From: an uncultured virus (IMG/VR IMGVR_UViG_3300043571_000407)
Lineage: Duplodnaviria; Heunggongvirae; Uroviricota; Caudoviricetes
DNA: 64,000 nucleotides
Direction: 5' to 3' (one strand)
Virus record (IMG/VR): IMGVR_UViG_3300043571_000407
Under the pieces are notes generated by a model. The model had not been told where the DNA came from. It made no database searches and was given only the letters and a program-made list of their open reading frames with translations. The first letter of the stretch is position 1; the number at the start of each line of letters is the position of its first letter. Below, in pieces: positions 19,225 to 61,057 of this stretch. The translations under genes were made by a program, and so were the position numbers.

Positions 19225-19228
19225 TATC

Positions 19229-25974: not shown

Positions 25975-25983
25975 AAAACGACC

Positions 25984-44642: not shown

Positions 44643-46202
44643 TCAGTTCCCTTGCCTAACTACAGAATAGATAAAATCAAACATTTCTGGATCGTTCTTA
44701 GCTAGGTAAATAGGGTTCCTGTGCATTAATTCTAATCCCATTGATAAAACCTCTGTATTATACATATTACTCCCGTACACTTTCCCTATGTAAGGATGTA
44801 TCCATTTATCAACCTTGGTAACTTCGTAATCTTCGTAATTAAGTGGATGTACATCTTTTAATTTTACTATCTCCTCTCCGGCAGTTCTTCTATTATAAAA
44901 ATTAAGCACCTCTTTGTGTATTAAAGGGGAACGATCCTCTATCCAATGCCCAGCTTCATGTATTAATGTTGCTTTCTCCGTGGTTCCCATGTCAATAGTC
45001 CCCGTTGGCCAGCAACAGCTTCTTTGTCCTTGTTTTATTTCACGGATAGACAATGTACTGGTTAACCCTGGAATTTCAATCATTCGAGAAAGTTCTTCTA
45101 TCCCATCCTGATATTCTTTTTTTCTCTTTTTATCTAAAACTGTATTGTTAGTATTGATTTTTGTGGGATTATCCACATAGATTAATTTTCTGGCTTCTTG
45201 AAGAATTGCCTTAATTCTTTCGTTCGTCTTGGCTCCAGTGTAGTATTCAATGTTTTCATTTGTTAAAAATTGAGCTATAACCTTTTTAGGTAAAAATCGG
45301 GGTACGGGAGGGGAATTGTTTAAGTCTTCCTGTAATTTTAATAACTGCGCTCTTTTCCCTTGTGCTTCGATCATCAATGCGTCTCGTCTTCCCTTCCGTT
45401 GTTCCAATAAAATATCTAATTCTGCATCTTTAGCCTCTTTCTCCTTTCTTTCTTTCTCCCATTTCGCTCTAATCTGATCTGCTTTTATTCTAAGTTGTTC
45501 TGATATTGTTCTGAACTTCTCATCTACCTCATTAGCTTTTTTGAGACGTTCTTGTTCCTCTAGCATTACCTGTTTCTGTTTTTCTGATTTCTTTACTTCA
45601 TATTCTTTCCTTTTTCTTTGTACTTCCTCCCATTCCTTTATTAACAAGGGTTCTGTTATTTTCTTGAGTTCATCAGCTTTTTTAAGAAATTCTTTTTCTT
45701 CTTCTGGTAAAACGCCTGGTTTTATTGACCGTCTTAAATATTTCGCTCGTAATTCGTTTAATTTAAAAAGCCTGTCCTGAGAGAAATCGTCCTGAGCATT
45801 GGCTCTGCAACTTTTCTTGATATTGATACAAATACTTCCACAATTATAGGAAGTTGGCTTTACACACTGGGCTTTCTCCCTTTTCGCTCCCCCTGCATCA
45901 ATTCGGTAAGAATAACCTGCTGAGAAGTCTTCCCAATTCTTTAAATCAACACCCCGACTATCAATTCTAGGGGTGAATGGTTTATAAACAACCGACTTCC
46001 TGTTTATCTCAAAACTAAACACACGAGATCTGGTTAAGTCCTTAAACCGCCCTGTTATCTTTTCATTCTCCAGGGTTCCAGGATCGAAATCTAGCACAAT
46101 GACCGGAGCATTATAGGCAAAAGGCATTGACAAGATTTGACCTATTGCCAATCTCATTTGAGCTTCGGAAGGTGCCATGTTAGTGGCAAAAGATTGAATC
46201 AT
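44643..46202 (-). CDS. Tagged effector: shared N-tag, coiled coil, zincin metallopeptidase
   Basis: Shared tag; LIHEAGHWIE and downstream TEVLSMGLE. Confidence 0.8.
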   Translation of the reverse strand: MIQSFATNMAPSEAQMRLAIGQILSMPFAYNAPVIVLDFDPGTLENEKITGRFKDLTRSRVFSFEINRKSVVYKPFTPRIDSRGVDLKNWEDFSAGYSYRIDAGGAKREKAQCVKPTSYNCGSICINIKKSCRANAQDDFSQDRLFKLNELRAKYLRRSIKPGVLPEEEKEFLKKADELKKITEPLLIKEWEEVQRKRKEYEVKKSEKQKQVMLEEQERLKKANEVDEKFRTISEQLRIKADQIRAKWEKERKEKEAKDAELDILLEQRKGRRDALMIEAQGKRAQLLKLQEDLNNSPPVPRFLPKKVIAQFLTNENIEYYTGAKTNERIKAILQEARKLIYVDNPTKINTNNTVLDKKRKKEYQDGIEELSRMIEIPGLTSTLSIREIKQGQRSCCWPTGTIDMGTTEKATLIHEAGHWIEDRSPLIHKEVLNFYNRRTAGEEIVKLKDVHPLNYEDYEVTKVDKWIHPYIGKVYGSNMYNTEVLSMGLELMHRNPIYLAKNDPEMFDFIYSVVRQGN

Positions 46203-46210
46203 GATTTTAC

Positions 46211-46510
46211 TTAATAAACAATTTCAGACTCATCAACCACTTTCCCGTTAATTACCAAAGGAGGAGGAGCAATAGGTTGATCCATCACTGTCCCGTCAAA
46301 AGTCTTCGCCAGTTCTGTTGCAATCAACCAATCAGGATCGGGAGTTGCGGGGGAATTAAGCCAGAAGAAAGGCGAGTCAGGGTCTATGGCTACCATTTTC
46401 TCCATTGCTAAAACATTGTTCAGGATTGAGGCATAATGGGGCGTTGAGGATGTCCAAACTCCATTCTCAATAACTGCCACTACACCGTTGATTTTGACGC
46501 GATAAGCCAT
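46211..46510 (-). CDS. Small hypothetical protein, possible partner of the peptidase effector
   Basis: 99 aa; ATG directly after the stop of the peptidase remnant. Confidence 0.6.
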   Translation of the reverse strand: MAYRVKINGVVAVIENGVWTSSTPHYASILNNVLAMEKMVAIDPDSPFFWLNSPATPDPDWLIATELAKTFDGTVMDQPIAPPPLVINGKVVDESEIVY

Positions 46511-46511
46511 G

Positions 46512-46677
46512 TTAACCTCTTCTAACTACAGAATAAATAAAATCAAACATTTCAGGGTCATTTTTAGCAAGTGCAGATGGATTCCTATACATTAATTCTA
46601 ACCCCATTGAGAGGATTTCAGTGGAACCGTTGTCAGCAGAATCTTTGCCCATATAAGGCACACTGGGGCCTCTTCAT
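46512..46677 (-). pseudogene. Internally deleted paralog of the peptidase effector
   Basis: MKRPQC joined out of frame to PYMGK...TEILSMGLELMYRNP..LAKNDPEMFDFIYSVVRRG*, matching the 44643-46202 C-terminus. Confidence 0.8.
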
Positions 46678-46706
46678 TTTAAGATTTCACCACCGTTCTA
46701 ATTGGT

Positions 46707-46898
46707 TTACTTTGTCTTGATTTTTCTTTGAGGTACTCCAGATGTTTTATCGTTAGACTTGCCTTCTGCGTTTAACTTGCTTTTCAATGTTTTGAGTTTG
46801 CGAGATGGGGCAGCAGATATCCCGTATTCAAGTTCAAGATTATCAATTTCATCCATATCTATTAGGATTTCATCGTCTGTTTGAGGTTTGTTATCCAT
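46707..46898 (-). CDS. Small hypothetical protein
   Basis: 63 aa; leader and first codons duplicated from 48322-48365. Confidence 0.5.
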   Translation of the reverse strand: MDNKPQTDDEILIDMDEIDNLELEYGISAAPSRKLKTLKSKLNAEGKSNDKTSGVPQRKIKTK

Positions 46899-46942
46899 GT
46901 TTTTATCCTTAAATAGTGCCTATATTATATCTTATTATATTT

Positions 46943-48337
46943 TTATTCTAGTTTGGTTTTTTTCTCGTGTTCCTTGACAAATGCCTTGGCTGATTTTTCT
47001 GACAGATGAAAATATTCAAGTTCATATCCATATTTAGCACCTTTTTCAATTCGTTTTTTAAACCCAACTGACTCATAAAACGGCACAGCACTTTCTAATG
47101 ACTCTAGTTTTATTTTCCCTTTAAATCCTCTTTTTACACTCTCTTGAATAGCATGATATATGATTTGTTTCCCCACTCCTTTTGTATTGGTTATTATATT
47201 TGATGGATTAGTACCTAAAAATTCTATATACATAGATTCTTTAGATTTGTCATTTCCCGTAGTAAAGAAGCCTTGAGTTTTTCCAGATTCGTCCTTTAAA
47301 AAAAACGCATCTTGTAATCCTGCCTCGACTTCTGTTGCCCAAGCTAGACCCTCCGCCACACTATTTGAGTCATCAACTAAATCTTTTTTTGCCTCCAGAA
47401 CATCTCGCTCAATCACCTCATTGCCATACTTTATAAGTTTACCATACGGGGACTGCTTTAATGCTTCCCCCGTACTATCAACGTACTTACTGGATTTATT
47501 AATCCATTCTTTTGCCGTTTTCTTTATCTCTTTTACGGATGCAATAGAAGGCGTTAATTTACCAACTTTTCGCACTGGGGATTGCTGCTGTTTCTGTTTT
47601 TCTAGCTGTTTTTCTAGCTGTTTTTGTTTTTCTAGCTGTTTTTGTTTTTCTAGCTGTTTTTGTTTTTCTAGCTCTTTTTGTCTTTCTAGCTCCTTTTGTT
47701 TCTCTGGCTCTCTTTGTTTTTCTCTTACACCCATGAGTGCAAGAGTAGTCACCTTATATTTTTTGGTGATTTCAGCCTCCCTCTCCCTCTCTTTGTCAGG
47801 ATTTAAACTATTTAATTGATCTAAATACAGTTTTTTTAACTTGAGTAACTTATCAATCCGTTCCTCCGAAAGTTCATCGTCAGCATTAGCACTGCAATTT
47901 TTATTGATATTGATACAGATACTTCCACAATTGTAGGATGTAGGCTTTACACACTGGGCTTTCTTCCTTTTTACTCCCCCTGTATCAAAACGATAGGAAT
48001 AACCTGCCGAGAAGTCTTCCCATGCCTCAACATTCAAACCCGTGCTGTCAATTCGTGCCACGAAGGGTCGAGCCACGAAGGGTCGAGCCACGAAGGGTTT
48101 ATAAACAACCGACTTCCTGTTTATCTCAAAACTAAACACACGGGCTCTAATGGCATCCTTAAACCGCCCTGTTATCTTATCGCCGTTACTATCCCCTAAA
48201 TCAAAATCAAGTACCACCACAGGCGAATTATAGGCAAATGGGAGCGATAACGTTTGAGCGATCGCGAGTTTCATTTGAGCCTCGGAAACCATAGTATTTG
48301 GATTAATTTTCACTTCCATAGGAGGTTTGTTATTCAT
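46943..48337 (-). CDS. Tagged effector: shared N-tag plus GNAT acetyltransferase
   Basis: Shared tag; MYIEFLGTNP, KGVGKQII, IKLESL..AVPFYESVGF. Confidence 0.8.
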   Translation of the reverse strand: MNNKPPMEVKINPNTMVSEAQMKLAIAQTLSLPFAYNSPVVVLDFDLGDSNGDKITGRFKDAIRARVFSFEINRKSVVYKPFVARPFVARPFVARIDSTGLNVEAWEDFSAGYSYRFDTGGVKRKKAQCVKPTSYNCGSICININKNCSANADDELSEERIDKLLKLKKLYLDQLNSLNPDKEREREAEITKKYKVTTLALMGVREKQREPEKQKELERQKELEKQKQLEKQKQLEKQKQLEKQLEKQKQQQSPVRKVGKLTPSIASVKEIKKTAKEWINKSSKYVDSTGEALKQSPYGKLIKYGNEVIERDVLEAKKDLVDDSNSVAEGLAWATEVEAGLQDAFFLKDESGKTQGFFTTGNDKSKESMYIEFLGTNPSNIITNTKGVGKQIIYHAIQESVKRGFKGKIKLESLESAVPFYESVGFKKRIEKGAKYGYELEYFHLSEKSAKAFVKEHEKKTKLE

Positions 48338-48358
48338 GTTCTTATCCTTAAATAGTGC

Positions 48359-50878
48359 CTATATTTTATCTTGTTTTAGTTTTTTCTCGTATTCCTTGAC
48401 AAAGGCTTTAGCTGATTCTTCTGACAAATCAAAATATTCCATATCATAATATTTGCCATCTTCAAAAATTTTCTCTGTTCTCCTCTGAAATCCCATTGCT
48501 TCATAGAAAGACTCTGACGTACTCAGTGATTCTAGTTTTATTTGCCCTTTCAGCCCTCGCTTTATGCTTTCCTGAATAGCCTGATACATAATCTGTTTTC
48601 CCACCCCTTTTTTACTCTGTATTATATTTAATGGATTTGTCCCTAAAAATTCTATATACATTGAATCTTTGGATTTTTCATTTCCTACCATAAAAAAGCC
48701 TTGAGCATCCCCAGATTCGTCTTTTAGAAAAATTGTATCTTGTTTTCCTGGCTTCTCTTGAGCATAAAAAATTAATCCATCTATTACTATACTTGAGTCA
48801 CTTACTAATTCCAACATGTTCTTAAGAGCTTTTCTATCGACCTTTTTACCTCCAATCATATTATCTTCAGAAAGAGCATTTAATACTTTGTTTCCTTTTA
48901 TCTTAAATTGTTTTGCGGTTGAAGACCATTCTTCTGCTGTTTTTATTTGATCTTCCTTGGCTTCCAAGGAAGGTGTTAACTTACCAACTTTTCGCACTGG
49001 AGGTTGTTGCTGTGCTTTAACTTCTTCCTGTGATTTAACTTCTTCCTGTTTAGCAGGTTTTTCTATTGGGGTGTCAACTTCCTCTACTTCTACATATAAA
49101 ATTCCGTCTTTTTTAGTAACACCCTTAAATTTGTGTCTAGTGTTTTTTGAAACAACAACTTCTTTTTCATCTCTTCCTAATTTACCTGCTTCGGGTTTCC
49201 CAAAAACACTAAGATTTCGGATGGACGCGCCCGACTTATTGGTTGATTTGATAATAACCTGAGTTGATTTTTCACCCGAAAAATCTAACTCAGTAAAGTG
49301 GGCAGCTATGGCAATATCAGAAGTCCAAGATGAGTGGGCAGATTGGTTTCCAACTATTCCATCTTTATCCCCTTTTGCCCACTTCATTGCTTCATCTTCA
49401 GAAGAAAAAGTAATCCCCCTATAAATTTCTCCTTTATATGGTGTTGAATTTTTGATAAATTCATCAATCTGGTCAGCCTGTCTATTCTCTCGCCCATTTT
49501 TCTGATCTTCTCTTATCTCGGAAGATCCTTTACCCGTCCAGTATTTAATGGCATTAGCGGTATCCTGAGCCTCTTTCAAGGTTATTTGCTTTCCAGTCTT
49601 GGTTACTGCATCATAATATTCCTCGGCATTTTTAGGCACGCTTTCGTGTGTTCCATCTCCAGCTAAATTTTTAACTGGTTGCTTTTCGGCTTCGGGTTCT
49701 GGCTTTTTTGGATTAGGGATTTTTTTTTCTGGGGATGGTTCAATTTCTTCTACTTCTACAAGTATGTACCCTTTTACTTTTTTGAAACTTTTTACTCTAT
49801 GTCTAGCATCTTTTGAAATAACAACTTCATCTTGGTCTGGAAATTCACTAATATCTCGAGCAGACGCTCCCGTCTTATTGACTGCCTTGATAATAACACG
49901 CCTCCCATCAGTAGCCTCTTTAGACTCATACAGTATATTAGAGAACCCAATTGCTACGGATTGACTAGAAGTCCAAGAAGCGTGAGCGGATTGATTATCT
50001 AAAACATTCCCCTCCCCCTTTATCCAATCCATCGCTTCTTGTTCAGAATCAAACTTCAATCCTCTGTATATACTCCCTTTGTATGGGGTTGAATTTTTGA
50101 TATAACTAGCAATATTTTCTGCATTTTGATTGAATACCCCTGCTTTTTGATCATCTCTAGTTTTATAAGAATCATCAGTCCAATCTCGAACAGACTCAAT
50201 AACTTCTTCAGCCTCTTTTTTTGTTATTGGCTTCCCACTTTTAGCCATTGCATCATAATATTCTTGTGCGTTTTTAGGTGCGCCATCGTGTGTTCCGTCA
50301 CCAATTAAGCTAGTAGGTTGCTGTTTCTTAACTACGGGATTTGTTTTTTTGGGTTCTGGCTTTAATTCTGGAATTAAAACAGGCGGTTTTTCCGCTTTGA
50401 CTTTAGGAGTTGCTTCAACTGTTTTTGCATAATTTTTCCCAATTCCCTCTAGCTTTTTAAGCCTATCTTTTATTGTGGGATCATCAGTTTTAATTTTGCA
50501 GCTTTTCATGATGTTAATACAGGCTTTCCCACAGTTATAAGCTGTTGGTTTCACACATTGTGGCTTCTTATTACCTCCTATCCCCGCATCTACCCGATAG
50601 GAGTAGCCACTAGAGAATTCCTCCCAGTCATCTACGCTATCCATCCGTCCTGGGGTGTAAGGTTTAAAAGTGACTGATTGCCCTTTGATATTAAATGAAA
50701 AAATACGGGGACGGGTTGCATCCTTGAATTTGCCTTCAAACTCCCCTTGATCGTTTACCGAAAAATCCAACATCACCACCGGAGCATTGTAGGCAAATGG
50801 TTGAGACAAAGTTTGGGCGATCGCCAACTTCATCTGTGGCTCGGTTGGCGTGGCATCTTTTCTAGTCGTTGAACTCAT
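48359..50878 (-). CDS. Tagged effector: shared N-tag, two ADP-ribosyltransferase domains, GNAT
   Basis: Two YRG / SWTS / (Q,E)xEVV sets, then a GNAT paralogous to 46943-48337. Confidence 0.8.
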   Translation of the reverse strand: MSSTTRKDATPTEPQMKLAIAQTLSQPFAYNAPVVMLDFSVNDQGEFEGKFKDATRPRIFSFNIKGQSVTFKPYTPGRMDSVDDWEEFSSGYSYRVDAGIGGNKKPQCVKPTAYNCGKACINIMKSCKIKTDDPTIKDRLKKLEGIGKNYAKTVEATPKVKAEKPPVLIPELKPEPKKTNPVVKKQQPTSLIGDGTHDGAPKNAQEYYDAMAKSGKPITKKEAEEVIESVRDWTDDSYKTRDDQKAGVFNQNAENIASYIKNSTPYKGSIYRGLKFDSEQEAMDWIKGEGNVLDNQSAHASWTSSQSVAIGFSNILYESKEATDGRRVIIKAVNKTGASARDISEFPDQDEVVISKDARHRVKSFKKVKGYILVEVEEIEPSPEKKIPNPKKPEPEAEKQPVKNLAGDGTHESVPKNAEEYYDAVTKTGKQITLKEAQDTANAIKYWTGKGSSEIREDQKNGRENRQADQIDEFIKNSTPYKGEIYRGITFSSEDEAMKWAKGDKDGIVGNQSAHSSWTSDIAIAAHFTELDFSGEKSTQVIIKSTNKSGASIRNLSVFGKPEAGKLGRDEKEVVVSKNTRHKFKGVTKKDGILYVEVEEVDTPIEKPAKQEEVKSQEEVKAQQQPPVRKVGKLTPSLEAKEDQIKTAEEWSSTAKQFKIKGNKVLNALSEDNMIGGKKVDRKALKNMLELVSDSSIVIDGLIFYAQEKPGKQDTIFLKDESGDAQGFFMVGNEKSKDSMYIEFLGTNPLNIIQSKKGVGKQIMYQAIQESIKRGLKGQIKLESLSTSESFYEAMGFQRRTEKIFEDGKYYDMEYFDLSEESAKAFVKEYEKKLKQDKI

Positions 50879-50889
50879 GGTTAAATCTC

Positions 50890-52866
50890 CTATACTTCCT
50901 CAGCTTCAACAATAATCCGTCCGTTTTCTTCCTTGACACTTTTAACTCGATGGCGAGTGTCTTTTAGCACCATAACTTCGTCTTCTTCTTTGATCCTGCT
51001 CAAATTCCTAATAGACACACCTGATTTATTAATGGTTTTAATGACGACGGGATACCTTTTTTCCTCAATAAAGAAATCGTCCGAAAAATTCTTTGCTGTT
51101 TTAAGGCTAGATGACCAAGAGGCGTGAGCACCTTGATTATCTAGCACCCCATCCTTGTCGCCTTTAGTCCAGTTTAAAGCCTCCTCTTTGGTTGCAAAAT
51201 GAATCCCTCGGTAAACTTCGCCTTCGTATGGGGTTGAGTTCCTGACATAATTAGAGATCCGATTGGCATCTTCGTTTTCTTCCCCTGCTTTTTGATCGAC
51301 TCGGATGTCAGTGGCATCCCTTGTCCATTTATAGATGGCTGTAGTGGTGGCTGCTGCCTCCTTCTTAGAAATATTTACTCCTGCTTTTTCCAGTGCTTCA
51401 CGATATTCATCGGGGGTTGAGGGCATGGATTCATGGTCGCCCTTCCCTACTAAATTAAGGTTTTTAGGTTTTTCTTCGGGTTGTTTAACCGCCTTTTCCT
51501 CGGATTCTTTTTGGGTTTTAGTTATTTCTGGTGATGGTTCAGGCATTTTCTTTTCCTTGTTAGGAGAAACTTCTTCTGTCTCAACGATCAAAACACCATC
51601 TTCGTACACAACCTTTTTAACCCGATGGCGAGTGTCTTTGGCAACCACTACCTCATCTTCCGCGCCAATGTTGCTTAGGTTTTTGATGGAGGCACCCGAC
51701 TTATTATTTGTTTTGATAATGACAGGTTGCGATGTAAAGTCGTTTACCGAATTGTTACCAGCAAATCCTCTCGCTTTATCCCAATTAGAAGTCCAAGATG
51801 CGTGGGCATTTTGATTGTCCAATATTCCGTCTTTGTCTCCTTTTGCCCACTCCAGTGCTTCTTCTGTTGATCCAAAGGAGATACCTCGGTAGATTTCACC
51901 TTTGAATGGCGTTGAACTCTTGACGTAATCAGTGATCCGGTCGGCAACGAGGCTGTATTTCCCTGCTTTTTGAGATTCTCTAATATAAGAGGCATCTTCT
52001 GTCCACTCTTTAACGGCTCCGGTAATCTTTATAGCATCGTCATAAGAGATGGGATTACCCGATGCTTTCATTGCTTCAAAGTACCCGTATGCGTCGCCAG
52101 GAACGGACTCATGATCCCCCTTCCCTACTAAATTAAGAGGCTTGGGTTCGTTTTCAGGTTCTTTAAGGGGTTCGTTTTCAGGTTCTTTAAGGGTTTCTGT
52201 TTGATCTTCACTCTTTACAGCTATTTTAGCAGCTTTCTTCCCTTCTTCAAAGTCAGATTCTTTCCCTTTTTTGCTAGGGGGAATTTCCTTTATTGTTTCT
52301 GGGATTTTATCTATTTCTGGTGGTTTTTCTACCTCTTTCTTGGTTTTTGTAGTTGATTTAGGATTGGATTTCTTGGCTTCTTTAGCGTAATCAATACCAG
52401 CAGCTTTCAATTTCTCTAAACGATCCTTTGACTGAGCGTCATCGGGGTTTGATTTACAATTATTATTAATATTTATACAGGCTTTCCCGCAATTATAAGC
52501 CGTTGGTTTAACGCATTGGGGTTTCTTTTTGTCTCCTGCCTTGCCTTTTGCCTTAACTCCTTTAGCTTTAGCATCAAAACGGAAGGAATAGCCTAAAGAA
52601 AACTCCTCCCATTGTTCTACTGCATCGCCCGAATCCATCCGTCCTGGGGCGTAAGGTTTGAAGTTAACGGTATTTCCATCTAACTCAAAATCAAACACCC
52701 TCGGACGGGCAGAATCCTTAAATCTCCCAGATATTTTACCCGTGTCATCTACCTTAAAGTCCAACACGTCCACTGGGGCGTTATAGGCAAAAGGAAGAGC
52801 AAGAGTCTGGGCGATCGCTGCTTGCATTTGTGCTTTTGTTGGGGCTGATTTAGTCTCTATGCTCAT
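50890..52866 (-). CDS. Tagged effector: shared N-tag plus two ADP-ribosyltransferase domains
   Basis: YRG / HASWTS / EDEVVV and YRG / HASWSS / EDEVMV. Confidence 0.8.
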   Translation of the reverse strand: MSIETKSAPTKAQMQAAIAQTLALPFAYNAPVDVLDFKVDDTGKISGRFKDSARPRVFDFELDGNTVNFKPYAPGRMDSGDAVEQWEEFSLGYSFRFDAKAKGVKAKGKAGDKKKPQCVKPTAYNCGKACININNNCKSNPDDAQSKDRLEKLKAAGIDYAKEAKKSNPKSTTKTKKEVEKPPEIDKIPETIKEIPPSKKGKESDFEEGKKAAKIAVKSEDQTETLKEPENEPLKEPENEPKPLNLVGKGDHESVPGDAYGYFEAMKASGNPISYDDAIKITGAVKEWTEDASYIRESQKAGKYSLVADRITDYVKSSTPFKGEIYRGISFGSTEEALEWAKGDKDGILDNQNAHASWTSNWDKARGFAGNNSVNDFTSQPVIIKTNNKSGASIKNLSNIGAEDEVVVAKDTRHRVKKVVYEDGVLIVETEEVSPNKEKKMPEPSPEITKTQKESEEKAVKQPEEKPKNLNLVGKGDHESMPSTPDEYREALEKAGVNISKKEAAATTTAIYKWTRDATDIRVDQKAGEENEDANRISNYVRNSTPYEGEVYRGIHFATKEEALNWTKGDKDGVLDNQGAHASWSSSLKTAKNFSDDFFIEEKRYPVVIKTINKSGVSIRNLSRIKEEDEVMVLKDTRHRVKSVKEENGRIIVEAEEV

Positions 52867-52959
52867 GTTTTTGTTCTTCCTTTTGCTTCAGAATTATCAA
52901 GACCCGTATTGCCGCAATTATAGGAGGTAGGTTTTCGCGCTGGGTTTTTTCATTCGATT

Positions 52960-54282
52960 TTAATTGTCAGGCTTTATTTTTTTTGCGTAAGTTCTTAGTC
53001 CTACCCAATTTGTGCTGACAGAATCCTCGATTTTATCAACAGCACTATCCTCTACACTCCCTCCTATTAATTGATATTTATCGTTCTCCTGCACCTTGAT
53101 CATTAATTTATTAAAATCCCCCCTACTAACTTTATCGCCCATAGCTCGTCTAATTTGATATATTGGAACGAGGTTGTCATAATTATTCTCCTTGTTTAAT
53201 TTGTCATAAACCGTGTCCGCCAACTTCGAGAATTCCTCAATATCAACAATTTGACCGGGCTTTCTTTTTGTCTCTTTTTCTGCTTTTTCTATAGCTTTCT
53301 CATCAGTAAATCTTATAAAGTTTTTCTCTCCAAAACTGGTCTTAATCCCATCTTTGTAAGATTTGTTAGGATCTCCCCCCATCATTTGTATGTCATCGTT
53401 ATCTAACTGGCTATCCATCATCCACTTGTCAAAATCTTGATCGGAAATCCGACCCTTTAGCTCTTTTCTAACTCTTTCTATTGGAAGAAGTCCGTCATAA
53501 TTATATTCCATGTTGATTCGAGCTAATTCTTTGGGTATTTCCTTTTTAAAGGTGTCATAATCCTTTATTGGTTCGTCACTATAAAAGGGATTTGCCTTGG
53601 ATTTAGGACTAGATTTAGCTTTGGGTTTAACTTCGGGCTTTGGCTCGATCTTGGCTTCTGGTTCTGCCGTTTTCTTTGTTGCCAATTTTTGACCAGTAGG
53701 CTTTTTACTCTCTGCTTTAGGCTTGGTTTGGGGCTTTTCTACAGTCGTTTTTGCTGTTTTCGCGTAATCTTTCCCAATTCCTTCTAACTTTTTAAGCCTG
53801 TCTTTTATTGTGGGATCATTGGTTTTGATTTTGCAGGTTTTCATGATGTTGATGCAAGCTGCACCACAGTTATAGGCTGTCGGCTTAACGCATTGAGGCT
53901 TTTTTTTGCCACCGACTCCCGCATCAACACGGAAGCCATACCCTGCTGAAAATGCCTCCCATTCTTGGACATCTTCCTCTGATTCTAAGCTGTCCATTTT
54001 GCCAGGTTTATAAGGCTTATAGGCTACAGACTCCCCATCTAGGGTAAAGGAAAACACCCGTGGACGTGCCGCATCTTTAAATACTCCGGTAATATTGCCA
54101 TTCTCGGCAACATCAAATTTAAGCACAACAACTGGGGCGTTATAAACAAAATCCATTGACAAGGTTTGGGCAATAAGTAACCTCATTTGAGCTTCGGTTG
54201 GTGCAGTACCTCCGCCACCATCCCCAACTAATACTTCATCTTCGTCAACACGGAACAAAGAACTTGGTTTTGTTTTTAACAT
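52960..54282 (-). CDS. Tagged effector: shared N-tag plus two tandem domains of unknown function
   Basis: Shared tag; duplicated NYD.L.PI..(V/I)R.....FD/N......Q....Q..GG unit. Confidence 0.75.
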   Translation of the reverse strand: MLKTKPSSLFRVDEDEVLVGDGGGGTAPTEAQMRLLIAQTLSMDFVYNAPVVVLKFDVAENGNITGVFKDAARPRVFSFTLDGESVAYKPYKPGKMDSLESEEDVQEWEAFSAGYGFRVDAGVGGKKKPQCVKPTAYNCGAACINIMKTCKIKTNDPTIKDRLKKLEGIGKDYAKTAKTTVEKPQTKPKAESKKPTGQKLATKKTAEPEAKIEPKPEVKPKAKSSPKSKANPFYSDEPIKDYDTFKKEIPKELARINMEYNYDGLLPIERVRKELKGRISDQDFDKWMMDSQLDNDDIQMMGGDPNKSYKDGIKTSFGEKNFIRFTDEKAIEKAEKETKRKPGQIVDIEEFSKLADTVYDKLNKENNYDNLVPIYQIRRAMGDKVSRGDFNKLMIKVQENDKYQLIGGSVEDSAVDKIEDSVSTNWVGLRTYAKKIKPDN

Positions 54283-54303: not shown

Positions 54304-54367
54304 AAACCTTGTGAGTCAATCACAAGTAAAAACCTTGTGAGTCAATCACAAGTAAAAACCTTGTGAG
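54304..54367. repeat. 26-bp tandem repeat x2.5, each unit a hairpin
   Basis: AAACCTTGTGAGTCAATCACAAGTAA; CTTGTGA/TCACAAG stem. Confidence 0.9.
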
Positions 54368-54765
54368 CTAATCTTCTCAACTAACTCCATGTCCCACGTC
54401 ACGATATTTTTAGTTAGTGAGACTAAGTTACAAACAACTCCATCGGGAGGGTAAAATGTGGTGTCTGCTCCGACAATATAGTCAACCCCCTCACCCTTCA
54501 ATTGTTCTTCTAAATAACGCCGTGAAATCCCTTTGACGGAATAGGATTTAGTTATTCCCTCCACTGAACTTAGATTTTCAATCCCTTCCTTACTTGGGAA
54601 TTGATCTTGAATAACCGGAGATGGGGTAATCTCCAGATACTCGTAATCATTGCCCAATCTTGTGCGAACGACAAGGCTTCGAATATTGGGATTGCCAAAT
54701 CCCCCCGCGAGAGGGGAGATCCGGTCTCTTAGGGCTATCATTTGCTCAACAAAGGATTGACTCAT
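54346..54765 (-). CDS. Putative head-completion protein
   Basis: 139 aa; position after the DUF4054-like gene. Confidence 0.45.
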   Translation of the reverse strand: MSQSFVEQMIALRDRISPLAGGFGNPNIRSLVVRTRLGNDYEYLEITPSPVIQDQFPSKEGIENLSSVEGITKSYSVKGISRRYLEEQLKGEGVDYIVGADTTFYPPDGVVCNLVSLTKNIVTWDMELVEKISSQGFYL

Positions 54766-54947
54766 TTCTTCTCTTTGGGAGTATAAGCAGCCTGTGGGTG
54801 GTCTGGCTTGTCTAACTTCTTATTGATTTCCTGTAACTCAACATAAATTGCTGCCATTGCTTGCAGTTCTGGCGAGGCAGGAGCCGCTATTCCAGCAGAA
54901 GTAACTCGACCATTATCAACGGTGAAATCAGGGAACTGTACTTTCAT
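54762..54947 (-). CDS. Small hypothetical protein
   Basis: Likely start MKVQFP; ATGA-coupled on both sides. Confidence 0.55.
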   Translation of the reverse strand: MKVQFPDFTVDNGRVTSAGIAAPASPELQAMAAIYVELQEINKKLDKPDHPQAAYTPKEKK

Positions 54948-55279
54948 AAAACTAAAATAGGGGGAGTGAAGATAGTATTGCGGAGGTGGATATATTGCCT
55001 CCCGTAAGTTGTCAAAGACCAATCGTTCTCGGAGCCAGAAGGGGTAAAACTTCCTTGCCCTGATGCGATTCCCGTGACACTAGAGGCAATATCCGCCTGT
55101 TGAAACCAATCAATGCTGATTCGATGGGCAGCAATCAACATAATTCCATCCGTTCTCTTGGGATCTGCCCAACCAGCACAGTAATTATTCTCGGCAAAGT
55201 TTAAACTGTATTGAATCACAGAAGATTCGACCACAGCGAACTGAGGATAAACCGCTAAAAAATCGGAAGGGAGAACCAT
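54944..55279 (-). CDS. DUF4054-like head-tail adaptor
   Basis: FLAVYPQF, LIAAH, TTYGRQY..L; synteny after capsid genes. Confidence 0.75.
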   Translation of the reverse strand: MVLPSDFLAVYPQFAVVESSVIQYSLNFAENNYCAGWADPKRTDGIMLIAAHRISIDWFQQADIASSVTGIASGQGSFTPSGSENDWSLTTYGRQYIHLRNTIFTPPILVL

Positions 55280-55282
55280 TTA

Positions 55283-55762
55283 TTACCCACGGATGTTCAT
55301 AGTATTAACCGATTTGATATTCTTGACTTGCTCCGCTATTGCCTTAGAAATAGCGGGACGATCTTCTCTTTTCTCGGATCGTTCTAACCAATCAATATCA
55401 CTAGAATTGCGAATTAGATCCAGAGCATCTTTTTCAATATAATCAAGGGTTGTTTCAGTAGGAAACTTCCCTTCCTCTAGGGTGGGAGAGATTACTCTGA
55501 ATGCTCCGCAATTAACAAGTTGCAATCCGAGGGGATGCCGAACAATATAGTCATAGTCCTCGTCGGGAAGCTCCAAATTAGTCCCAGGCAGAATCCAACT
55601 CCCCCGTGTTTCCACCGCATCCAAGGAAGTTTTCTTGGTTCCCCCACGATTAATAGGACGGGAGAAACGGATCGGCGAAGTGATAGCCTCCACTGATATT
55701 CCATAGGGAATGCGTGGATTGTGAGGATTTAGCTTTGGGTCAAAGATGATAGTTTTAGACAT
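55283..55762 (-). CDS. Hypothetical head-associated protein
   Basis: 159 aa directly after the major capsid gene. Confidence 0.6.
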   Translation of the reverse strand: MSKTIIFDPKLNPHNPRIPYGISVEAITSPIRFSRPINRGGTKKTSLDAVETRGSWILPGTNLELPDEDYDYIVRHPLGLQLVNCGAFRVISPTLEEGKFPTETTLDYIEKDALDLIRNSSDIDWLERSEKREDRPAISKAIAEQVKNIKSVNTMNIRG

Positions 55763-55764
55763 TT

Positions 55765-56718
55765 TTATTCGGGTAATACTACAATGTGCATGGAGAATGG
55801 GCGTTTGAGGTCAATTCCCCCAAACTTAAACTTGGCACCACGCCAGAAAGAATCAACACCAATGGGACGAGTATCAGTCCACTTTAATGGTTGATAAATC
55901 TTAGCAGAGACTTTTTTGGGATCTCGACGGAAAGCCTGAATAAAGCGGGTAGGAGCCAAACCAATCGACTCTAAATATTCGGGAGCCATCTCGGACACCA
56001 CGCCGACTTCTTTGATGTTGGAGTTGACTTTTAAGAAGTGTTCTAACACTGTGCGATCTAAGGCAGATGTGCCAATTTGAATGATATCCGAGGAGAGGTG
56101 TTCGTAAGTTTCCGAATCCATCAGCAAAGTGTCAGGCTTCTCTCGATTATTGGTCAACCGAGTCGGAGCATTAACACAATCATTTAACACACTCAGCTTT
56201 TGCTGTGATGTTGCAGACCCGTTTAAAGGGAAGGGAGCATAAGACCGCAGGGCTTGGGGGTGATTTAGAAACCCTGGCATCCCTGTTTCTAAATCACCGT
56301 TTGCCACCAACTGATTGATTTTTTGTTGTGCGGCTTCTTGAATTGTCCAGATTTTGTCCTCCTCAATGCTCTCGCCCATTCGACTGACAGCCGCGATATC
56401 ATCCTCGGAAACGCTATAACCTTGTCCCCATTTATGGATCGGCATCTTCATCTCGCCATAGACCAGTTCCACTTCGGGAAGGTCTGTGGTGTAGTTTCGG
56501 ATTAATTTGAACTGCCCGACGTGACGGAGCCACCGATATCCCCAGGTTTTTGCCCAGGGCTTGTTTTGGATATTGAGAGGGCAAATGACTCCAGCAGCGA
56601 AAGGATAGTCCGCAAGATCGAACTCCTTATCTACTTGAGCTTCTAAGTCCATCAGGGTGCCAAAGAACGTCCCGATTTCATCAGCATCCAACCTTGTAGT
56701 CCCGGAAAAGTTCATCAT
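55765..56718 (-). CDS. Major capsid protein (DUF2184 family)
   Basis: 317 aa; DLPEV, GYSVSEDDI.A, GD...MPGFLNHP, PDTLLM, GGI.LKRP; DUF2213-decoration-MCP-DUF4054 order. Confidence 0.85.
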   Translation of the reverse strand: MMNFSGTTRLDADEIGTFFGTLMDLEAQVDKEFDLADYPFAAGVICPLNIQNKPWAKTWGYRWLRHVGQFKLIRNYTTDLPEVELVYGEMKMPIHKWGQGYSVSEDDIAAVSRMGESIEEDKIWTIQEAAQQKINQLVANGDLETGMPGFLNHPQALRSYAPFPLNGSATSQQKLSVLNDCVNAPTRLTNNREKPDTLLMDSETYEHLSSDIIQIGTSALDRTVLEHFLKVNSNIKEVGVVSEMAPEYLESIGLAPTRFIQAFRRDPKKVSAKIYQPLKWTDTRPIGVDSFWRGAKFKFGGIDLKRPFSMHIVVLPE

Positions 56719-56737: not shown

Positions 56738-57568
56738 TTAAGGAACATTGAAGCCGATTAAAACGCACACCGCGCCAGTGCTAGTGACCACAGGGGAACA
56801 TTTGAACTCAGCCTTCGCGGAGATATTAATTGTACCACTTGTCACTTTTGTTGCTTTCCCCTCGTGTCCCGCAGCAATAGAGACGTAGACGGCATCATTG
56901 ATTGTGATATCCGTCTCAACACATTCAACCCAGATCCCTGACGATTCCCCTGTCCGGTCAACCACGTCCATCACATCCTGATAGGGGTAAGTTGTCCCAC
57001 TATAGTTTGCACCTTGATAAATCAAAGGTTGCATTTCGATGTCTTTGACGATTCGAGTAATCCCTAAGATTACGTCAGTGGTAGCAGTAGGAAGTCCTGC
57101 AACTTTGGGGTCGGTTTCGGTGTTTGCTCTGGCAACAAACCGACCGAATGGTACGGGGAGAGGAATAATCATCGCCGTGGTTACAGTTGCCGTTAAACTA
57201 GCACCAGTAACTACCAGGATGTTCTCGATACCATATTCCAGTGCCGTGAATAGCACGTTATTCCCACTAACACTTGCAATCCCCCGTCGCCCAAAAGCAG
57301 GGTTTACTCGGATTGCATTCAATAAACCAGCTTGCAGTTCCGCTTGAGTGGCACTAGCATCGGTTGTAAAACGTGCCGTGCCTAGTCCGTTGTTTAACCT
57401 GACGGTATATACAGTGCTAGAAGCAGGGGAGGCAGGAATCGCCAGAGTCCAGACCTCTTTAACAGCATTCTTTACAGAAACAAGGGCTTTGACTCTCGGA
57501 AAATTAATAGATCCCTCGCCCATGCCAGGAGTCGCCCGATCAAATTGAAGATTGTAGTTGTACCGCAT
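56738..57568 (-). CDS. Capsid decoration/cement protein with inserted domain
   Basis: VPFGRFVA, LGIT, GIWVE, VYV motifs; between protease and MCP. Confidence 0.7.
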   Translation of the reverse strand: MRYNYNLQFDRATPGMGEGSINFPRVKALVSVKNAVKEVWTLAIPASPASSTVYTVRLNNGLGTARFTTDASATQAELQAGLLNAIRVNPAFGRRGIASVSGNNVLFTALEYGIENILVVTGASLTATVTTAMIIPLPVPFGRFVARANTETDPKVAGLPTATTDVILGITRIVKDIEMQPLIYQGANYSGTTYPYQDVMDVVDRTGESSGIWVECVETDITINDAVYVSIAAGHEGKATKVTSGTINISAKAEFKCSPVVTSTGAVCVLIGFNVP

Positions 57569-59193
57569 TATCTAGTAACCCCCATGCGTGTTTTTCCTAT
57601 CGTTAAAGGCTGCTTATAGGCGTGCACCCGTCGTCTTTCCCCTTCGGTGAGTTCATCTCCGTGGGTAGATTGAGCAGGTCTTTTGAGCATCGAATCAAGG
57701 CGATGGGAGAACTCCTCTGAGTCTCCATCGTCTCCATCGTCTCCATCGTCTTTCTCCTCGTCATCCCCTTCTTCTTTATCACCTGGATCGGTGGGGGAAG
57801 AATTACGATTCTCCTGAACGTAGGCAAAAACTCCGTCTACATAAGAATCGGATCGAAACGTCAAATCCATATTGGGTTCGATTTCAGCTAACAAAGTGCG
57901 TTTGATGTCGCTAGTAGAGAAGCTACTATCAAACCGAGCGTCAGAGAACCCTGGCAACAAACTGTCGGCTTCCTTCCATATCGCCAAAAGATCCCCGACC
58001 GAATCACCCCGACAAGCACTCTCATCTTCGTCGTTGCTATCAACACGAGGCTTGGACTTTTTTTTCTTTCTGGAAGTCATAGTTTCTTCTTCCTCTGCAA
58101 CATCCCATTCTTCCATCATTTCTTCTTCTTCATTGTCCTCCTCTTCCATCATTTCTTCATCTTCGGGAGCAGGAGGCATCATTTTCTTTTTGCCTCCATC
58201 AACACGGACGTACTGCCCCATGTCATTCCGGTAATAACCTAATTCACCAAGGACATTATCGGCATTGTCTACGATGATCTCTAGGTTATCTAACCGGAAC
58301 TGGTAATTTTCCCGTGCGGCTTCTAGCTTCCGGTTCTCCCGACTCGTAGTATCAAACCGTGTAACAAGCGAATCGTGGCGTTCCTTTAATTCTTTCAATT
58401 CACGGAATCGAGTACCGCTAATGGAAGCGAAAGATTCAGGGATTCCTGAATACTCAACTCCATCGCATCTAACTATTGCCATACGCTGTTCATTATCTCC
58501 ATTATCATTGGTTTTGTTAGGGTTGCTAGGGTTTTCGATGACTTGCCCTGCGACAGCTTGCCCTGCGACAGCTTGCCCTGCGACAGCTTGCCCTGCGACA
58601 GCTTGCCCTGCGACAGCTTGCCCTGCGACAGCTTGCCCTGCGACAGCTTGCCCAATCCCCGCAGCACTATCTAATCGGAGGCGAACATCTCCCCCTGCCC
58701 TTCCTCGGCTCGTCAAAGCCAAATGGTTGGCACGGACATTAATCTGTTCCCTGTCATAGTGTTGCCCATTCCACACCCCTTCCCCTTGCTTGATGTCGCA
58801 GGTATATCCAGCAGATAGTTGTTCCTTTTCCCTTGCATCAATTAGGGCGATCGCCTTAGCATCAAAAAACGACACCAAGCCTTTGATCACCCCTTCAGTC
58901 TTGTCATAATAAGCAGAAGAATCAGTCATCCCTACCGTGTAATCCTTGTAGCTTTCGCTATTAAGAAGTCCAACATAGGGATGTTCTATCACCAGGGGGA
59001 GGAGTTTGAAACTCTCTACTGTGGCCAGTTCTGCATTGGTTTCCGGTCTCCTGAGTTCGTGGACTATGGAGCCATCAGGCTGACGATACTCCAACACCCC
59101 GTCACAACAAAAAGACCCCTCACAATGGAGACGACCATCCTCAGTTCTTATTACCCTAAATTTAGTTGGAGCATCGAGCCTGATTTCAACCAT
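57568..59193 (-). CDS. DUF2213 protein (putative prohead protease plus scaffold)
   Basis: GVLEY, ELR.PE, PLVIEHP, QLSAGY.C, NHLAL..RGRAG; acidic coiled C-terminal region. Confidence 0.88.
   Translation of the reverse strand: MVEIRLDAPTKFRVIRTEDGRLHCEGSFCCDGVLEYRQPDGSIVHELRRPETNAELATVESFKLLPLVIEHPYVGLLNSESYKDYTVGMTDSSAYYDKTEGVIKGLVSFFDAKAIALIDAREKEQLSAGYTCDIKQGEGVWNGQHYDREQINVRANHLALTSRGRAGGDVRLRLDSAAGIGQAVAGQAVAGQAVAGQAVAGQAVAGQAVAGQAVAGQVIENPSNPNKTNDNGDNEQRMAIVRCDGVEYSGIPESFASISGTRFRELKELKERHDSLVTRFDTTSRENRKLEAARENYQFRLDNLEIIVDNADNVLGELGYYRNDMGQYVRVDGGKKKMMPPAPEDEEMMEEEDNEEEEMMEEWDVAEEEETMTSRKKKKSKPRVDSNDEDESACRGDSVGDLLAIWKEADSLLPGFSDARFDSSFSTSDIKRTLLAEIEPNMDLTFRSDSYVDGVFAYVQENRNSSPTDPGDKEEGDDEEKDDGDDGDDGDSEEFSHRLDSMLKRPAQSTHGDELTEGERRRVHAYKQPLTIGKTRMGVTR
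58542..58653. repeat. 15-bp in-frame repeat x7 (GQAVA)
   Basis: CTTGCCCTGCGACAG units. Confidence 0.95.
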
Positions 59194-59325: not shown

Positions 59326-59700
59326 ATGACTATTACAAAAAGAGAGTACCCTTCTAAGAAAACGTTAGGATCTGGTGCATTGGCTCCCTATCGCGCTCTC
59401 GGTCGGTCAATTCGACGGGATCTTATAAATGCAAATCTTGGGATGATGGAATTTAGCGAGAAAAGTGGGTGGGATTGGCAGACAATTCGACGGATTTTAA
59501 TGGGGGAGCGGCGGACGGATTTTATAGAACTGTTGATTATCGCTTCGTTAATTTCTGAGGATCAATCGGAAACGGAAAGACTGATCCTCACCTGGACGAA
59601 GGAAACTTTGAAAATCATCGAGGAAGGAATCCCCCAAGAAATTAACCCAGGTCTTGTTGATAATCTTGTCGAGATTAACGAAGAGATCCCTTTAGAATAG
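59326..59700 (+). CDS. XRE-like HTH protein
   Basis: EFSEKSGWDWQTIRRILMGERRTDFIEL; divergent from DUF2213. Confidence 0.65.
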   Translation: MTITKREYPSKKTLGSGALAPYRALGRSIRRDLINANLGMMEFSEKSGWDWQTIRRILMGERRTDFIELLIIASLISEDQSETERLILTWTKETLKIIEEGIPQEINPGLVDNLVEINEEIPLE

Positions 59701-60094
59701 CAATAATCTCCTGACGATTCCGTTGGCTTACTCCTAAAAATTGACGTTTAGGCATTTTCTTAGTGCCTTTTTGTAAATAGGAGCCATAGGGCAATGGAGT
59801 CCCTACCTCAACCCTTCCTTTTTCAATCCGATATCGAATAGAAGATCGCAACAATCCTTGGCGTTGTAGTATTTGCATAATAAAACCCCGACTAGCCTTG
59901 TATTTAAGGGTTGATGGGGCTAGGTGTTCCCATTTCTCCCCGTAAGGACTCTGTTCCTTTTGAAAGTTCTCGTCGGTTGATGCCACCATAAACTGCCCGA
60001 CTTTATGCAGTTCAGGTGTGAGGTTCTGAAACTTTCTGATTAATTTATTTAGATAATTTTGGACTTGGTTGGCAACGAATTTCAGGGATAGCAT
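59675..60094 (-). CDS. Phage virion morphogenesis protein (Mu gpG-like)
   Basis: NF..EQSP.GEKW..LAPST, IL...G.LR.SI, VGT..YG..LQ.G, MPKRQFLGVS. Confidence 0.88.
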   Translation of the reverse strand: MLSLKFVANQVQNYLNKLIRKFQNLTPELHKVGQFMVASTDENFQKEQSPYGEKWEHLAPSTLKYKASRGFIMQILQRQGLLRSSIRYRIEKGRVEVGTPLPYGSYLQKGTKKMPKRQFLGVSQRNRQEIIAILKGSLR

Positions 60095-60147
60095 GGGGTT
60101 AAAAGTAAAATATATCCCCATACTAACCTGTTAAACAAATTTGATGT

Positions 60148-60937: not shown

Positions 60938-61057
60938 TTATATCACGCACACTAAACCAATTCCGATCCGTTTCTCCCCATCTGGGAACAAATAGCAATC
61001 AATACTTCTGTTGCCTAATACCATTTCGGCACGAATTGATCGTATAATGTCTGACAT
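60938..61057 (-). pseudogene. Truncated duplicate of the 60148-60675 N-terminus
   Basis: MSDIIRSIRAEMVLGNRSIDCYLFPDGEKRIGI then stop after 39 aa. Confidence 0.8.

Follow-up and report, generated by a model that had tools for sequence, protein, structure and literature searches.

The window analysed here, the whole stretch of 64,000 nucleotides from an uncultured virus (IMG/VR IMGVR_UViG_3300043571_000407), belongs to a close relative of Planktothrix phage PaV-LD, whose capsid protein it matches at 98.4%. Directly after its head-completion genes lie five co-oriented genes with a common N-terminal module, referred to here as the tag; the motifs that a sequence-only reading had given for this module occur exactly five times in a six-frame translation of the window. 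The relevant features, including a sixth tagged gene, are as follows (a slash within a motif marks a cut position):

61185..64000, minus strand: sixth tagged gene, 5' end outside the window; C-terminal 937 aa with three ADP-ribosyltransferase (ART) domains
59675..60121, minus strand: virion morphogenesis/neck protein (PF05069)
57568..59193, minus strand: DUF2213 prohead protease-scaffold (PF09979, E 6.7e-29; phrog_530), with invariant H71 and S127 and eight R-x-D motifs
56738..57568, minus strand: cement/decoration protein (PF23982, PF22758)
55765..56718, minus strand: major capsid protein (PF09950, formerly DUF2184), the N-terminal RLD/A of which aligns with the TLS processing site KND/A
54346..55762, minus strand: head-completion region immediately ahead of the array, comprising DUF4054 (54944-55279) and its neighbours
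52960..54282, minus strand: tagged gene 1, 440 aa; tag (53779-54204), linker and two winged-helix domains (53293-53574, 52963-53250)
52867..52949, minus strand: recombination scar separating genes 1 and 2, with the degenerate remnant of a Cys module (E 0.008)
50890..52866, minus strand: tagged gene 2, 658 aa; tag (52402-52845) and two R-S-E-type ART domains (E-D-E)
48359..50878, minus strand: tagged gene 3, 839 aa; tag (50444-50851), two ART domains (Q-D-E, E-K-E) and GNAT
46943..48337, minus strand: tagged gene 4, 464 aa; tag (47840-48292), Q/K/E-rich linker and GNAT
46707..46898, minus strand: 63-aa ORF behind the GNAT gene, its N-terminal half acidic
46512..46661, minus strand: zincin C-terminal remnant of a deleted gene
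46211..46510, minus strand: 99-aa gene, orthologue of PaV-LD ORF082R, found after an ORF081-type zincin or its remnant
44643..46202, minus strand: tagged gene 5, 519 aa; tag (45753-46175), coiled coil and zincin metallopeptidase (HEAGH ... E); phrog_33618

The array is broken at 46211-46898 by the 63-aa ORF, for which no PHROG match was found, the zincin remnant and the 99-aa gene. Four related loci (L003, L005, L006 and L007) carry two Cys-only zincin genes where the window has the zincin remnant, and L003, L005 and L007 hold clearer copies of the Cys-module remnant between genes 1 and 2. The sixth tagged gene and residues 277-1213 of a tagged ORF from another locus (L019) agree at 100%. For 43995-44519, labelled a tail chaperone by the sequence-only reading, no family match was found, and the label describes position only. 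Contigs of three metatranscriptome runs span the array; such contigs are uninformative on transcription, strand and level.

Cargo domains and their exchange

Most of the cargo assignments made from the letters alone are borne out. The GNAT domains match Pfam PF13673 (E 1.1e-4 in gene 4 and 4.1e-5 in gene 3), and the ART call is backed by PF01129 in gene 2 (E 1.4e-5) and by R, SWT and E-x-E or Q-x-E motifs. The complete R-S-E set (R-G, ASWT or SSWT, E-x-E or Q-x-E) is recovered by regular expression in six of seven ART domains; in the seventh, the first ART of the gene at 48359, the motifs were read by eye. The ART cargo fits the motif definition of R-S-E ADP-ribosyltransferases, and its activity is a prediction from these motifs. 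The zincin call rests on HExxH and a downstream E, a Pfam match not being found. Gene 1 had been credited with two domains of unknown kind; the number is right, and the domains are winged helices rather than unknown: the top rows of a fold search with the cargo model (pLDDT 83) are winged-helix proteins (Z 6.8-8.0), while ESM Atlas leads for this cargo all stayed below 0.9. The same cargo occupies the same slot in a distant lineage (L045/L046). The description as a cocktail of protein-modifying enzymes applies to the ART, GNAT and zincin domains but not to all tagged cargo: the winged helices and an Ala/Lys-rich basic protein are not enzymatic. Several conflict domains share one chain in a virion-gene context (ART-ART-GNAT and three ARTs here; InPase-ART and LPD1 in relatives), as is the mark of polyvalent proteins.

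That the cargo is swappable is evident from orthologous slots, which hold tags of 97-99% identity while the cargo differs: in slot 1 (L003, L004), the tags are 97% and the cargoes 16% identical, and in slot 3 (L005, L007), the corresponding values are 97-99% and 14-18%. In a tree of the tags, a branch with support 92/99 leaves 16 of 16 PaV-group copies on the same side. Within each phage lineage the array expands through duplication, and the C-terminal cargo is exchanged behind a constant tag.

A toxin-immunity system of the polymorphic, MuF-like kind, aimed at competing cells or phages and with immunity genes located downstream, would also display a constant N-terminus, a variable C-terminus and orphan remnants; the 99-aa gene, a candidate inhibitor or partner, follows one zincin type or its remnant in nine of the nine loci that have this gene. 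MuF toxins share with the array a constant head-associated N-terminus and variable C-terminal enzymes near portal or head genes, and 89% of them have a small ORF downstream (PMC5576092). The array, in contrast, has several paralogues per genome and seems for the most part to lack downstream immunity ORFs. A 63-aa ORF comes after the GNAT gene and the 99-aa gene after one zincin type, but only 11 and 21 bp separate the ART genes at 50890 and 48359 from the tagged gene that follows, and no small ORF intervenes. The tag, which the sequence-only reading did not recognise as MuF, is indeed not MuF: PF04233 was not found in the genes of the window, in 132 of 150 relatives scanned or in four of five genomes (the exception is CL131, where ORF012 combines tag and MuF within one polypeptide), and hhalign of the tag against a MuF region yields a probability of 0.1. 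A toxin-immunity function is regarded as very improbable.

Architecture and distribution of the tag

The tag comprises 136-151 aa; the copies are 55-65% identical to that of the gene at 50890, and 53 columns are invariant among the five. The module of ~125 aa seen by the sequence-only reading is indeed shared, but it is not one indivisible unit: it is tripartite, consisting of an alpha/beta domain (predicted fold, pLDDT ~90), R-x-D sites and a basic Cys4 motif that probably binds Zn, and the alpha/beta domain is dispensable in some virion proteins. The leader, up to the predicted cut, is 97-120 aa long with Asp as its last residue, and the 50 residues after the predicted cut site bear a net charge of +4 to +8. 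The minimal common unit is the cleavage site plus Cys4, the alpha/beta domain being an optional accessory; some zincin genes (PaV-LD ORF080R type) start at the Cys module, without an upstream cleavage site.

No match to the tag was found in Pfam, NCBIfam or PADLOC, no significant match among PDB sequences and no usable one in the ESM Atlas. In a fold search of 48,161 PDB chains the best VIA Z was 4.7, with none at 5 or above, and Foldseek returned no match with E <= 0.001, which does not in itself prove a new fold. Weak matches to XopAI, on an ART domain rather than the tag, and to ZorA, on a coiled-coil linker, were rejected as far below cut-off or compositional. Consistent with the earlier remark that no description of the tag was known, searches of the open-access literature found none. 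PHROG 16619 ('minor head protein') and PHROG 33618 (unknown) contain the tag at profile positions 577-715 and 9-51, respectively; however, these are whole-protein clusters, in which it is neither set out as a domain nor given a function.

The tag is matched by 154 clusters (at 50% identity), and genomes contain 2-9 tagged genes; a narrow five-sequence profile gave a sole match (G001) in 401 cyanobacterial genomes, and no locus turned up in scans with A6, A8, P0143 and P0150. In relatives, the tag is fused to conflict domains (ART, PARP, kinase, LRAT, hydrolase, InPase and LPD1), to ParB-like cargo and, in P0150, to DUF2213 itself. The tag, for which a link to DUF2213/DUF2184 heads had been expected, is not restricted to them: Mu-type and lambda-type heads also carry it, with other cleavage-like motifs. 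Cys4 is placed after Mu- and lambda-type portals, and in L045/L046 tagged genes directly follow the portal. Conversely, the tag was not found in S-CBS4, TLS and BrunoManser, which have DUF2184-type heads; a head of this type thus does not need it.

The cleavage motif and the head protease

The N-terminus of the mature TLS capsid protein, ASDMGIW by Edman sequencing (PMC11447400), maps to residue 28, immediately after K-N-D, and this site aligns with RLD/A of the window's capsid protein, the TLS head being built from the same DUF2213/PF09950 families. The Edman sequence implies a propeptide of 27 residues, as opposed to the 45 surmised by the authors (PMC11447400). In the window, R-x-D is found not only eight times in the protease-scaffold but also once at the capsid N-terminus. 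Counts of the form R[ILVMF]D[ASTGN] are 8 for the protease (541 aa) and 9 for the tags (875 aa), compared with 0 for the cargo (2982 aa) and 3 for 46 other genes (11,713 aa); none of 5000 shuffles equalled the protease or tag count.

R-x-D lies at most 30 aa upstream of Cys4 in 147 of 163 modules, against 167 of 1624 control windows, and is nearly invariant there (R87, D97 of 100); prior to the motif counts, P0093 and P0115 had been left out of the 150 listed matches as repeat-protein false positives. Modules beside DUF2213-type heads have R[ILVMFAQ]D in 51 of 54 cases and [AIV][ED]F in none. Beside Mu-type portals, the R-x-D form is absent and [AIV][ED]F is present in six of six modules, a count from related loci obtained with a regular expression refined after the loci had been seen (3/6 with the prior one). 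The Mu-type proteases (phrog_976) are themselves rich in the E/D-F motif. For lambda-type heads, R/[AS] is a candidate cut site, with the caveat that Arg is common in these basic linkers. On the basis of these motifs, the leader seems to end in a site of the cognate prohead protease. Co-folding of the protease domain with the tag scored 0.00 and was counted neither way.

The net positive charge past the cut site, and Cys4 without the alpha/beta domain as the common unit across three head types, would also be compatible with passive loading: Cys4 would merely be a basic DNA-binding module, the proteins would enter with the DNA or stick to particles, and R-x-D would be incidental or trim whatever enters the head. 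However, the near-invariant motif preceding Cys4 changes when the protease family changes, which argues for selection for contact with the prohead protease, and passive loading appears quite improbable. The prohead protease acts before DNA packaging.

Virion presence and a possible delivery route

For CL131, 23 virion proteins were detected by LC-MS/MS of CsCl-purified particles (PMC6293099 SI Table 5). The tag profile clearly matches only ORF044, 045, 047 and 048 of this phage, with pI values of 9.1-9.7, and weakly (E 0.001) ORF012, a portal-InPase-MuF protein; all four, and the weak ORF012, are in the virion list. Given 23 of 149 proteins detected, four of four corresponds to p 4.5e-4; restricted to ORF005-049 (23 of 45 detected), p is only 0.06 for four of four and 0.03 for five of five. 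ORF045 reaches 27 PSMs per 100 aa versus 28 for the capsid protein. Bulk LC-MS/MS, however, gives no location inside the head, and basic proteins can co-purify. GenBank annotates two PaV-LD proteins with Cys-only tags, ORF081R as 'virion structural protein' and ORF085R as 'minor virion protein'. The idea of capsid loading thus gains support from the tagged homologues in the CL131 virion proteome and from the tag bearing the motif of its own prohead protease.

Packaged and cleaved proteins might nevertheless serve the virion, as core or DNA-condensing proteins or as enzymes that modify proteins of the phage itself while the particle is assembled. Per residue, CL131 ORF045 is the most abundant, and its cargo is non-enzymatic and Ala/Lys/Arg-rich; the winged-helix gene holds its slot in two distant lineages, and T4 IPIII has a role in head assembly (PMC9026906); the fast exchange among ART, GNAT, zincin and winged helix and the breadth of conflict domains suit an arms race better, making a virion-serving function unlikely.

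The array is probably one of capsid-loaded, maturation-cleaved effectors, similar to T4 CTS/Alt, with an undescribed folded tag; we infer internal location, cleavage, ejection and targets in the following manner: The six genes would encode minor internal head proteins of the PaV-LD-like Planktothrix phage, which, judging from gene position, may be made late with the head genes. The N-terminal module would bring them into the assembling head together with the DUF2213 protease-scaffold, presumably at the procapsid stage. Scaffold, capsid protein and tag would each be cut by the protease behind [RK]-x-D, a site shown for the TLS capsid and presumed for the tags. Cleavage would shed the leader including the alpha/beta domain, and the mature proteins would start at the Lys-rich Cys4 module, with predicted masses of 36, 62, 83, 40 and 49 kDa for genes 1-5. 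The basic Cys4 module may hold the cargo on the packaged DNA, along with which it would be ejected. The targets of the ARTs, GNATs and zincins may be host or defence proteins, which they would modify or cut as infection begins; the winged helices may bind DNA.

A broader proposal is plausible, if tentative: cyanophages would have a head-agnostic delivery system made of a folded loading domain plus Cys4. This portable unit would pass among DUF2213, Mu-type and lambda/HK97-type heads, adapt its cleavage site to each new prohead protease and give rise, lineage by lineage, to arrays of swappable effectors for injection; some phages would apparently do so in the absence of MuF1. The proposal would also bring to light a specificity of the T1-like DUF2213 protease for [RK]-x-D that had gone unrecognised. 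If true, this specificity could predict virion-loaded proteins from sequence alone. The effector reading predicts cut sites, mature masses and leader swaps between protease types, for which PaV-LD, CL131 and 2AV2 are cultured phages. Four unannotated CL131 virion proteins would acquire a probable role, the injected arsenal of freshwater cyanophages could be listed from genomes via the tag, and a cargo-loading handle would be offered for phages of bloom-forming cyanobacteria.

Only a few cases, the T4 CTS and the P1 DarB signal among them, have taught us how phages select enzymes for packing and injection, and the tag is a candidate third solution, recognisable as a conserved domain. As in the array, unrelated cargoes of T4 internal proteins and Alt share an N-terminal propeptide, in T4 removed by the prohead protease gp21; both include ARTs and basic proteins and vary between related phages (PMC9026906). 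The T4 CTS, however, is a 10-residue peptide cut after Glu, whereas the leader of the array is 97-120 aa long, folded and ends in Asp; the presumably retained Cys4 module, the T1/Pam3-type head, the predicted [RK]-x-D site and the tandem, recombining cargo also set the array apart. Polyvalent proteins, proposed to be packaged in heads, draw on the same cargo pool (metallopeptidase, ART, GNAT, kinase, InPase, ParB-like and LPD1) (PMC5512222, PMC9503650), but their processing is ascribed mainly to a built-in peptidase instead of a prohead protease motif. The available main text of PMC5512222 describes no such N-terminal module, and 'cysteine', 'ribbon', 'DUF2213' and 'packaging signal' occur zero times in it. 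Dar proteins of P1, including DarB, are head-packaged enzymes with an N-terminal signal (PMC9024508); the available part of that source reports no consensus among Dar N-termini, whereas the array repeats one conserved domain in two to nine genes per genome.

The tagged-gene array and its cargo

The sequence places the window in a cyanophage closely related to Planktothrix phage PaV-LD, to which its capsid protein is 98.4% and one of its tags 88.8% identical. The late operon contains an array of tagged genes, in which a shared N-terminal module (tag) precedes differing C-terminal domains (cargo).

Late operon of the window, in order
Neck protein (PF05069), minus strand
Protease-scaffold (DUF2213), minus strand
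Cement protein, minus strand
Major capsid protein (PF09950), minus strand
Head-completion genes, minus strand
Tagged-gene array after the head-completion genes, minus strand: genes 1-5 at 52960-54282, 50890-52866, 48359-50878, 46943-48337 and 44643-46202
Gene with no family match, after the array, minus strand
38800-43845, minus strand, last: 1681-aa gene in tape-measure position

The gene in tape-measure position is present although PaV-LD is called tail-less in the accessible part of PMC10343443. A perfect 15-bp tandem repeat (58540-58655, GQAVA units) lies in the protease-scaffold linker, with far fewer copies in PaV-LD, and 60938-61113 is a partial copy of the start of the gene at 60148-60675, just upstream of that gene. 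ThyX, amidoligase-2, an HU-like protein (by sequence reading) and a ParB-fused DNA methylase (25081-26934, 19990-20271, 31533-32846) are ordinary phage accessory genes.

The tagged array is a real feature: the common N-terminus proposed by the sequence-only reading is a module of 136-151 aa with 53 invariant columns in five genes. Its cargo calls also hold, and cargo identity is established at motif level: the GNATs score in Pfam, the ART domains bear R / SWT / [EQ]-x-E motifs, and in the zincin HExxH is followed by a downstream Glu. Of the domain listed there as twice present and unknown, the repeat is borne out but the unknown status is not; it reads as a winged helix, with a confident predicted fold (pLDDT 83) and winged-helix proteins as top structural matches (Z 6.8-8.0, middling, yet consistent). 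The ORF that runs off the window edge (61185-64000, with three ARTs) counts as a sixth member, because it matches residues 277-1213 of a tagged ORF from a related locus, L019, at 100% identity.

Cargo swapping is established at orthologous slots, where tags are 97-99% identical and cargo is exchanged (slot 1 holds either a winged helix or ART, and slot 3 ends in either GNAT or ART); ART copy number varies from one to three. In a 40-row tag tree with weak deep branches and long CL131 rows, 16/16 PaV-group tags fall on one side of a branch (support 92/99) and those of a second lineage group likewise (91/91); therefore, the arrays expanded within lineages. In the second lineage (loci L045, L046 and the Kamptonema MAG contig L047), tagged genes again follow the head-completion genes; those of L045 and L046 lie directly after the portal.

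Anatomy of the tag and known systems

The AlphaFold2 model of the tag (69 sequences, pLDDT 82) comprises (i) a four-stranded sheet with one helix before and one after it (residues 1-84), (ii) a disordered basic linker (90-104) and (iii) a small module, built from three short strands and a helix, with four cysteines. No clear fold match was found among solved structures; the good neighbours are cyanophage proteins only, from PaV-LD, Nodularia phages and two further entries leading to CL131. Searching 1.84 billion representatives with a profile yielded 154 clusters. In 129 near-full segments among the matches listed, the strongest columns are G-x-F, R and Y-x-P, followed by R (87%)-x-D (97%) and, at 98-100%, the four cysteines. 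The parts of the tag separate in nature: PaV-LD ORF080R, 081R and 085R hold the Cys half alone, ORF083R the N-half alone, and CL131 ORF048 one full tag and five Cys modules.

A Pfam scan of 132 relatives, out of 150 matches listed, found fusions to InPase (9), ART (7), GNAT (5), alpha/beta hydrolase (4) and ParB (3), and more rarely to PARP, kinase and LRAT (2 each), LPD1, pentapeptide and DUF2213 (1 each); MuF was found in 0/132. In one relative (P0150), the DUF2213 protease domain is joined straight to a full tag, where the scaffold region would be. The N-half occurs just before MuF in the same chain in CL131 ORF012 (L048:3801-7982) and in an adjacent gene in locus L099 (16319-20295), whose MuF protein (16891-20295) has an intein/Hint insertion. 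PF04233 was not found in PaV-LD or the related genomes G002, G403 and G404 (G002-G404 89-93% complete).

As far as the accessible text of the sources goes, the tag probably works like the T4 CTS with its IP and Alt proteins (PMC9026906), to which it is not homologous, and like the P1 DarB signal (PMC9024508), and the cargo pool is that of polyvalent proteins (PMC5512222, PMC9503650). No PaV-LD entry was found in the PMC9503650 supplement. The array does not belong to the MuF1 toxins, and within PHROGs the tag occurs just as a stretch without a name. The open-access full texts searched, among them the main text of PMC5512222, yielded no account of the tag, the array or [RK]-x-D specificity; as far as the literature searched goes, all are new, and the delivery principle is known from T4 CTS and DarB.

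A probable prohead-protease site that follows head type

R[ILVMF]D[ASTGN] occurs eight times in the protease-scaffold (541 aa), and the five tags together (875 aa) have nine copies; elsewhere in the window, cargo has none in 2982 aa and 46 other genes three in 11,713 aa. Neither enriched count was reached in 5000 shuffles. R-x-D also stands at the start of the capsid protein (TTRLDA). The protease and capsid families of phage TLS are those of the window, and its mature capsid N-terminus, by Edman sequencing, is ASDMGIW (PMC11447400, accessible part). Our mapping to the GenBank translation (L052:7088-8062) places this from residue 28 onward, directly after K-N-D, unlike the 45-residue cut surmised by the TLS authors. 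This K-N-D aligns with the capsid R-x-D of the window, PaV-LD, CL131, S-CBS4, L045 and L046, and the TLS scaffold contains 12 [RK]-x-D-[ASGT] motifs. The cleavage motif is validated in this homologous head, and [RK]-x-D specificity, defined by the Edman-site mapping, is probable for T1-like DUF2213 proteases. Among 120 DUF2213 proteins (P0152-P0271), the closest, cyanophage-like ones bear about 6-14 [RK]-x-D-[ASG] motifs; distant ones, many NUDIX-fused, have few, and [AG]-[MQLF]-D-[ASG] is more frequent in them.

In relatives among the matches listed, R-x-D lies at most 30 residues upstream of the Cys4 module in 147/163 cases, versus 167/1624 control windows; the remaining modules have a K-x-D or x-x-D form (12), lie too near the N-terminus (3) or have E-F (1). 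The head genes of Nodularia phage 2AV2 include a Mu-type portal and a capsid-E protein, and its protease is a different one (phrog_976); both tags of this phage have E/D-F in place of R-x-D, and its scaffold is enriched in E/D-F (12 observed, 2.7 expected). Seventy new loci were fetched via ParB-like cargo rather than the tag, and 52 had tag matches: 34 by DUF2213-type head genes, four by Mu-type portals and 14 marker-free with the HMM set used. Counted over distinct Cys4 modules, R[ILVMFAQ]D occurred upstream in 51/54 cases at DUF2213 heads and 0/6 at Mu-type heads, and [AIV][ED]F in 0/54 and 6/6 (3/6 with an earlier regex); the covariation is strong pattern evidence and no clean test, because the second regex was refined once the loci were seen and the loci are related. 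Ten marker-free loci were grouped as lambda-type (confirmed by Pfam: lambda portals in five, S78 protease-capsid fusions in four), and in these Cys4 is often joined directly behind the portal. Neither motif was found at their 11 modules, which appear to carry an R|[AS]-like site resembling those loci's own protease-capsid junctions. The module is not confined to DUF2213 heads, since it also occurs at Mu-type and lambda-type heads; it is absent from the DUF2184-type-head phages TLS, S-CBS4 and BrunoManser.

Virion presence of homologues and proposed mechanism

Homologues of the tagged proteins are established in virions. ORF044, 045, 047 and 048 of Aphanizomenon phage CL131 are the sole tag-profile matches in its genome, and the portal-InPase-MuF fusion ORF012 matched the N-half weakly, by a broader local HMM. 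According to the accessible part of PMC6293099, LC-MS/MS of CsCl-purified particles detected 23 proteins, inside and outside of the head not being told apart; all five (5/5) are listed, with 9, 123, 24, 175 and 107 spectra, and 86 for the capsid protein. From this list, enrichment of tagged proteins has p 4.5e-4 against the whole genome (four tagged), and 0.06 (four tagged) or 0.03 (five) against the late region alone (23/45 detected). In the same data, ORF045 (L048:34950-36714, Ala/Lys/Arg-rich cargo) equals the capsid protein in abundance per residue, and the overlapping ORF046 (pI 10.2) is likewise detected. A virion-internal role of the tagged proteins is an alternative that we regard as unlikely.

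GenBank attaches virion labels to PaV-LD ORF081R and ORF085R; the PaV-LD genome paper reportedly used mass spectrometry. Cys-only proteins occur in virions, which shows that the alpha/beta domain is dispensable in some cases.

These observations probably reflect the following mechanism: tagged proteins would be recruited into the procapsid, and the leader would be removed, leaving mature products of 36, 62, 83, 40 and 49 kDa with the basic Cys4 module, which may bind zinc, first. Cargo would be ejected together with the DNA and then act on host proteins. Passive, DNA-bound loading of proteins beginning with such a basic module is a rather improbable alternative to recruitment.

That the array is a toxin-immunity system is more doubtful still.

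Between genes 4 and 5 stand an ORF of 63 aa, the remnant of a zincin gene and a gene of 99 aa (46211-46510); relatives carry two further zincin genes at this site. In 9/9 loci where seen, the 99-aa gene comes after the ORF081-type zincin or what is left of it; it persists once that zincin is deleted, and is a candidate inhibitor. In PaV-LD-like phages, small ORFs with a conserved RFVA-x-GPEDW end adjoin tagged or ART genes.

Small ORFs with the RFVA-x-GPEDW end
L001: 4503-4727 and 11898-12032
Further loci: L005, L014, L015, L024, L025, L027
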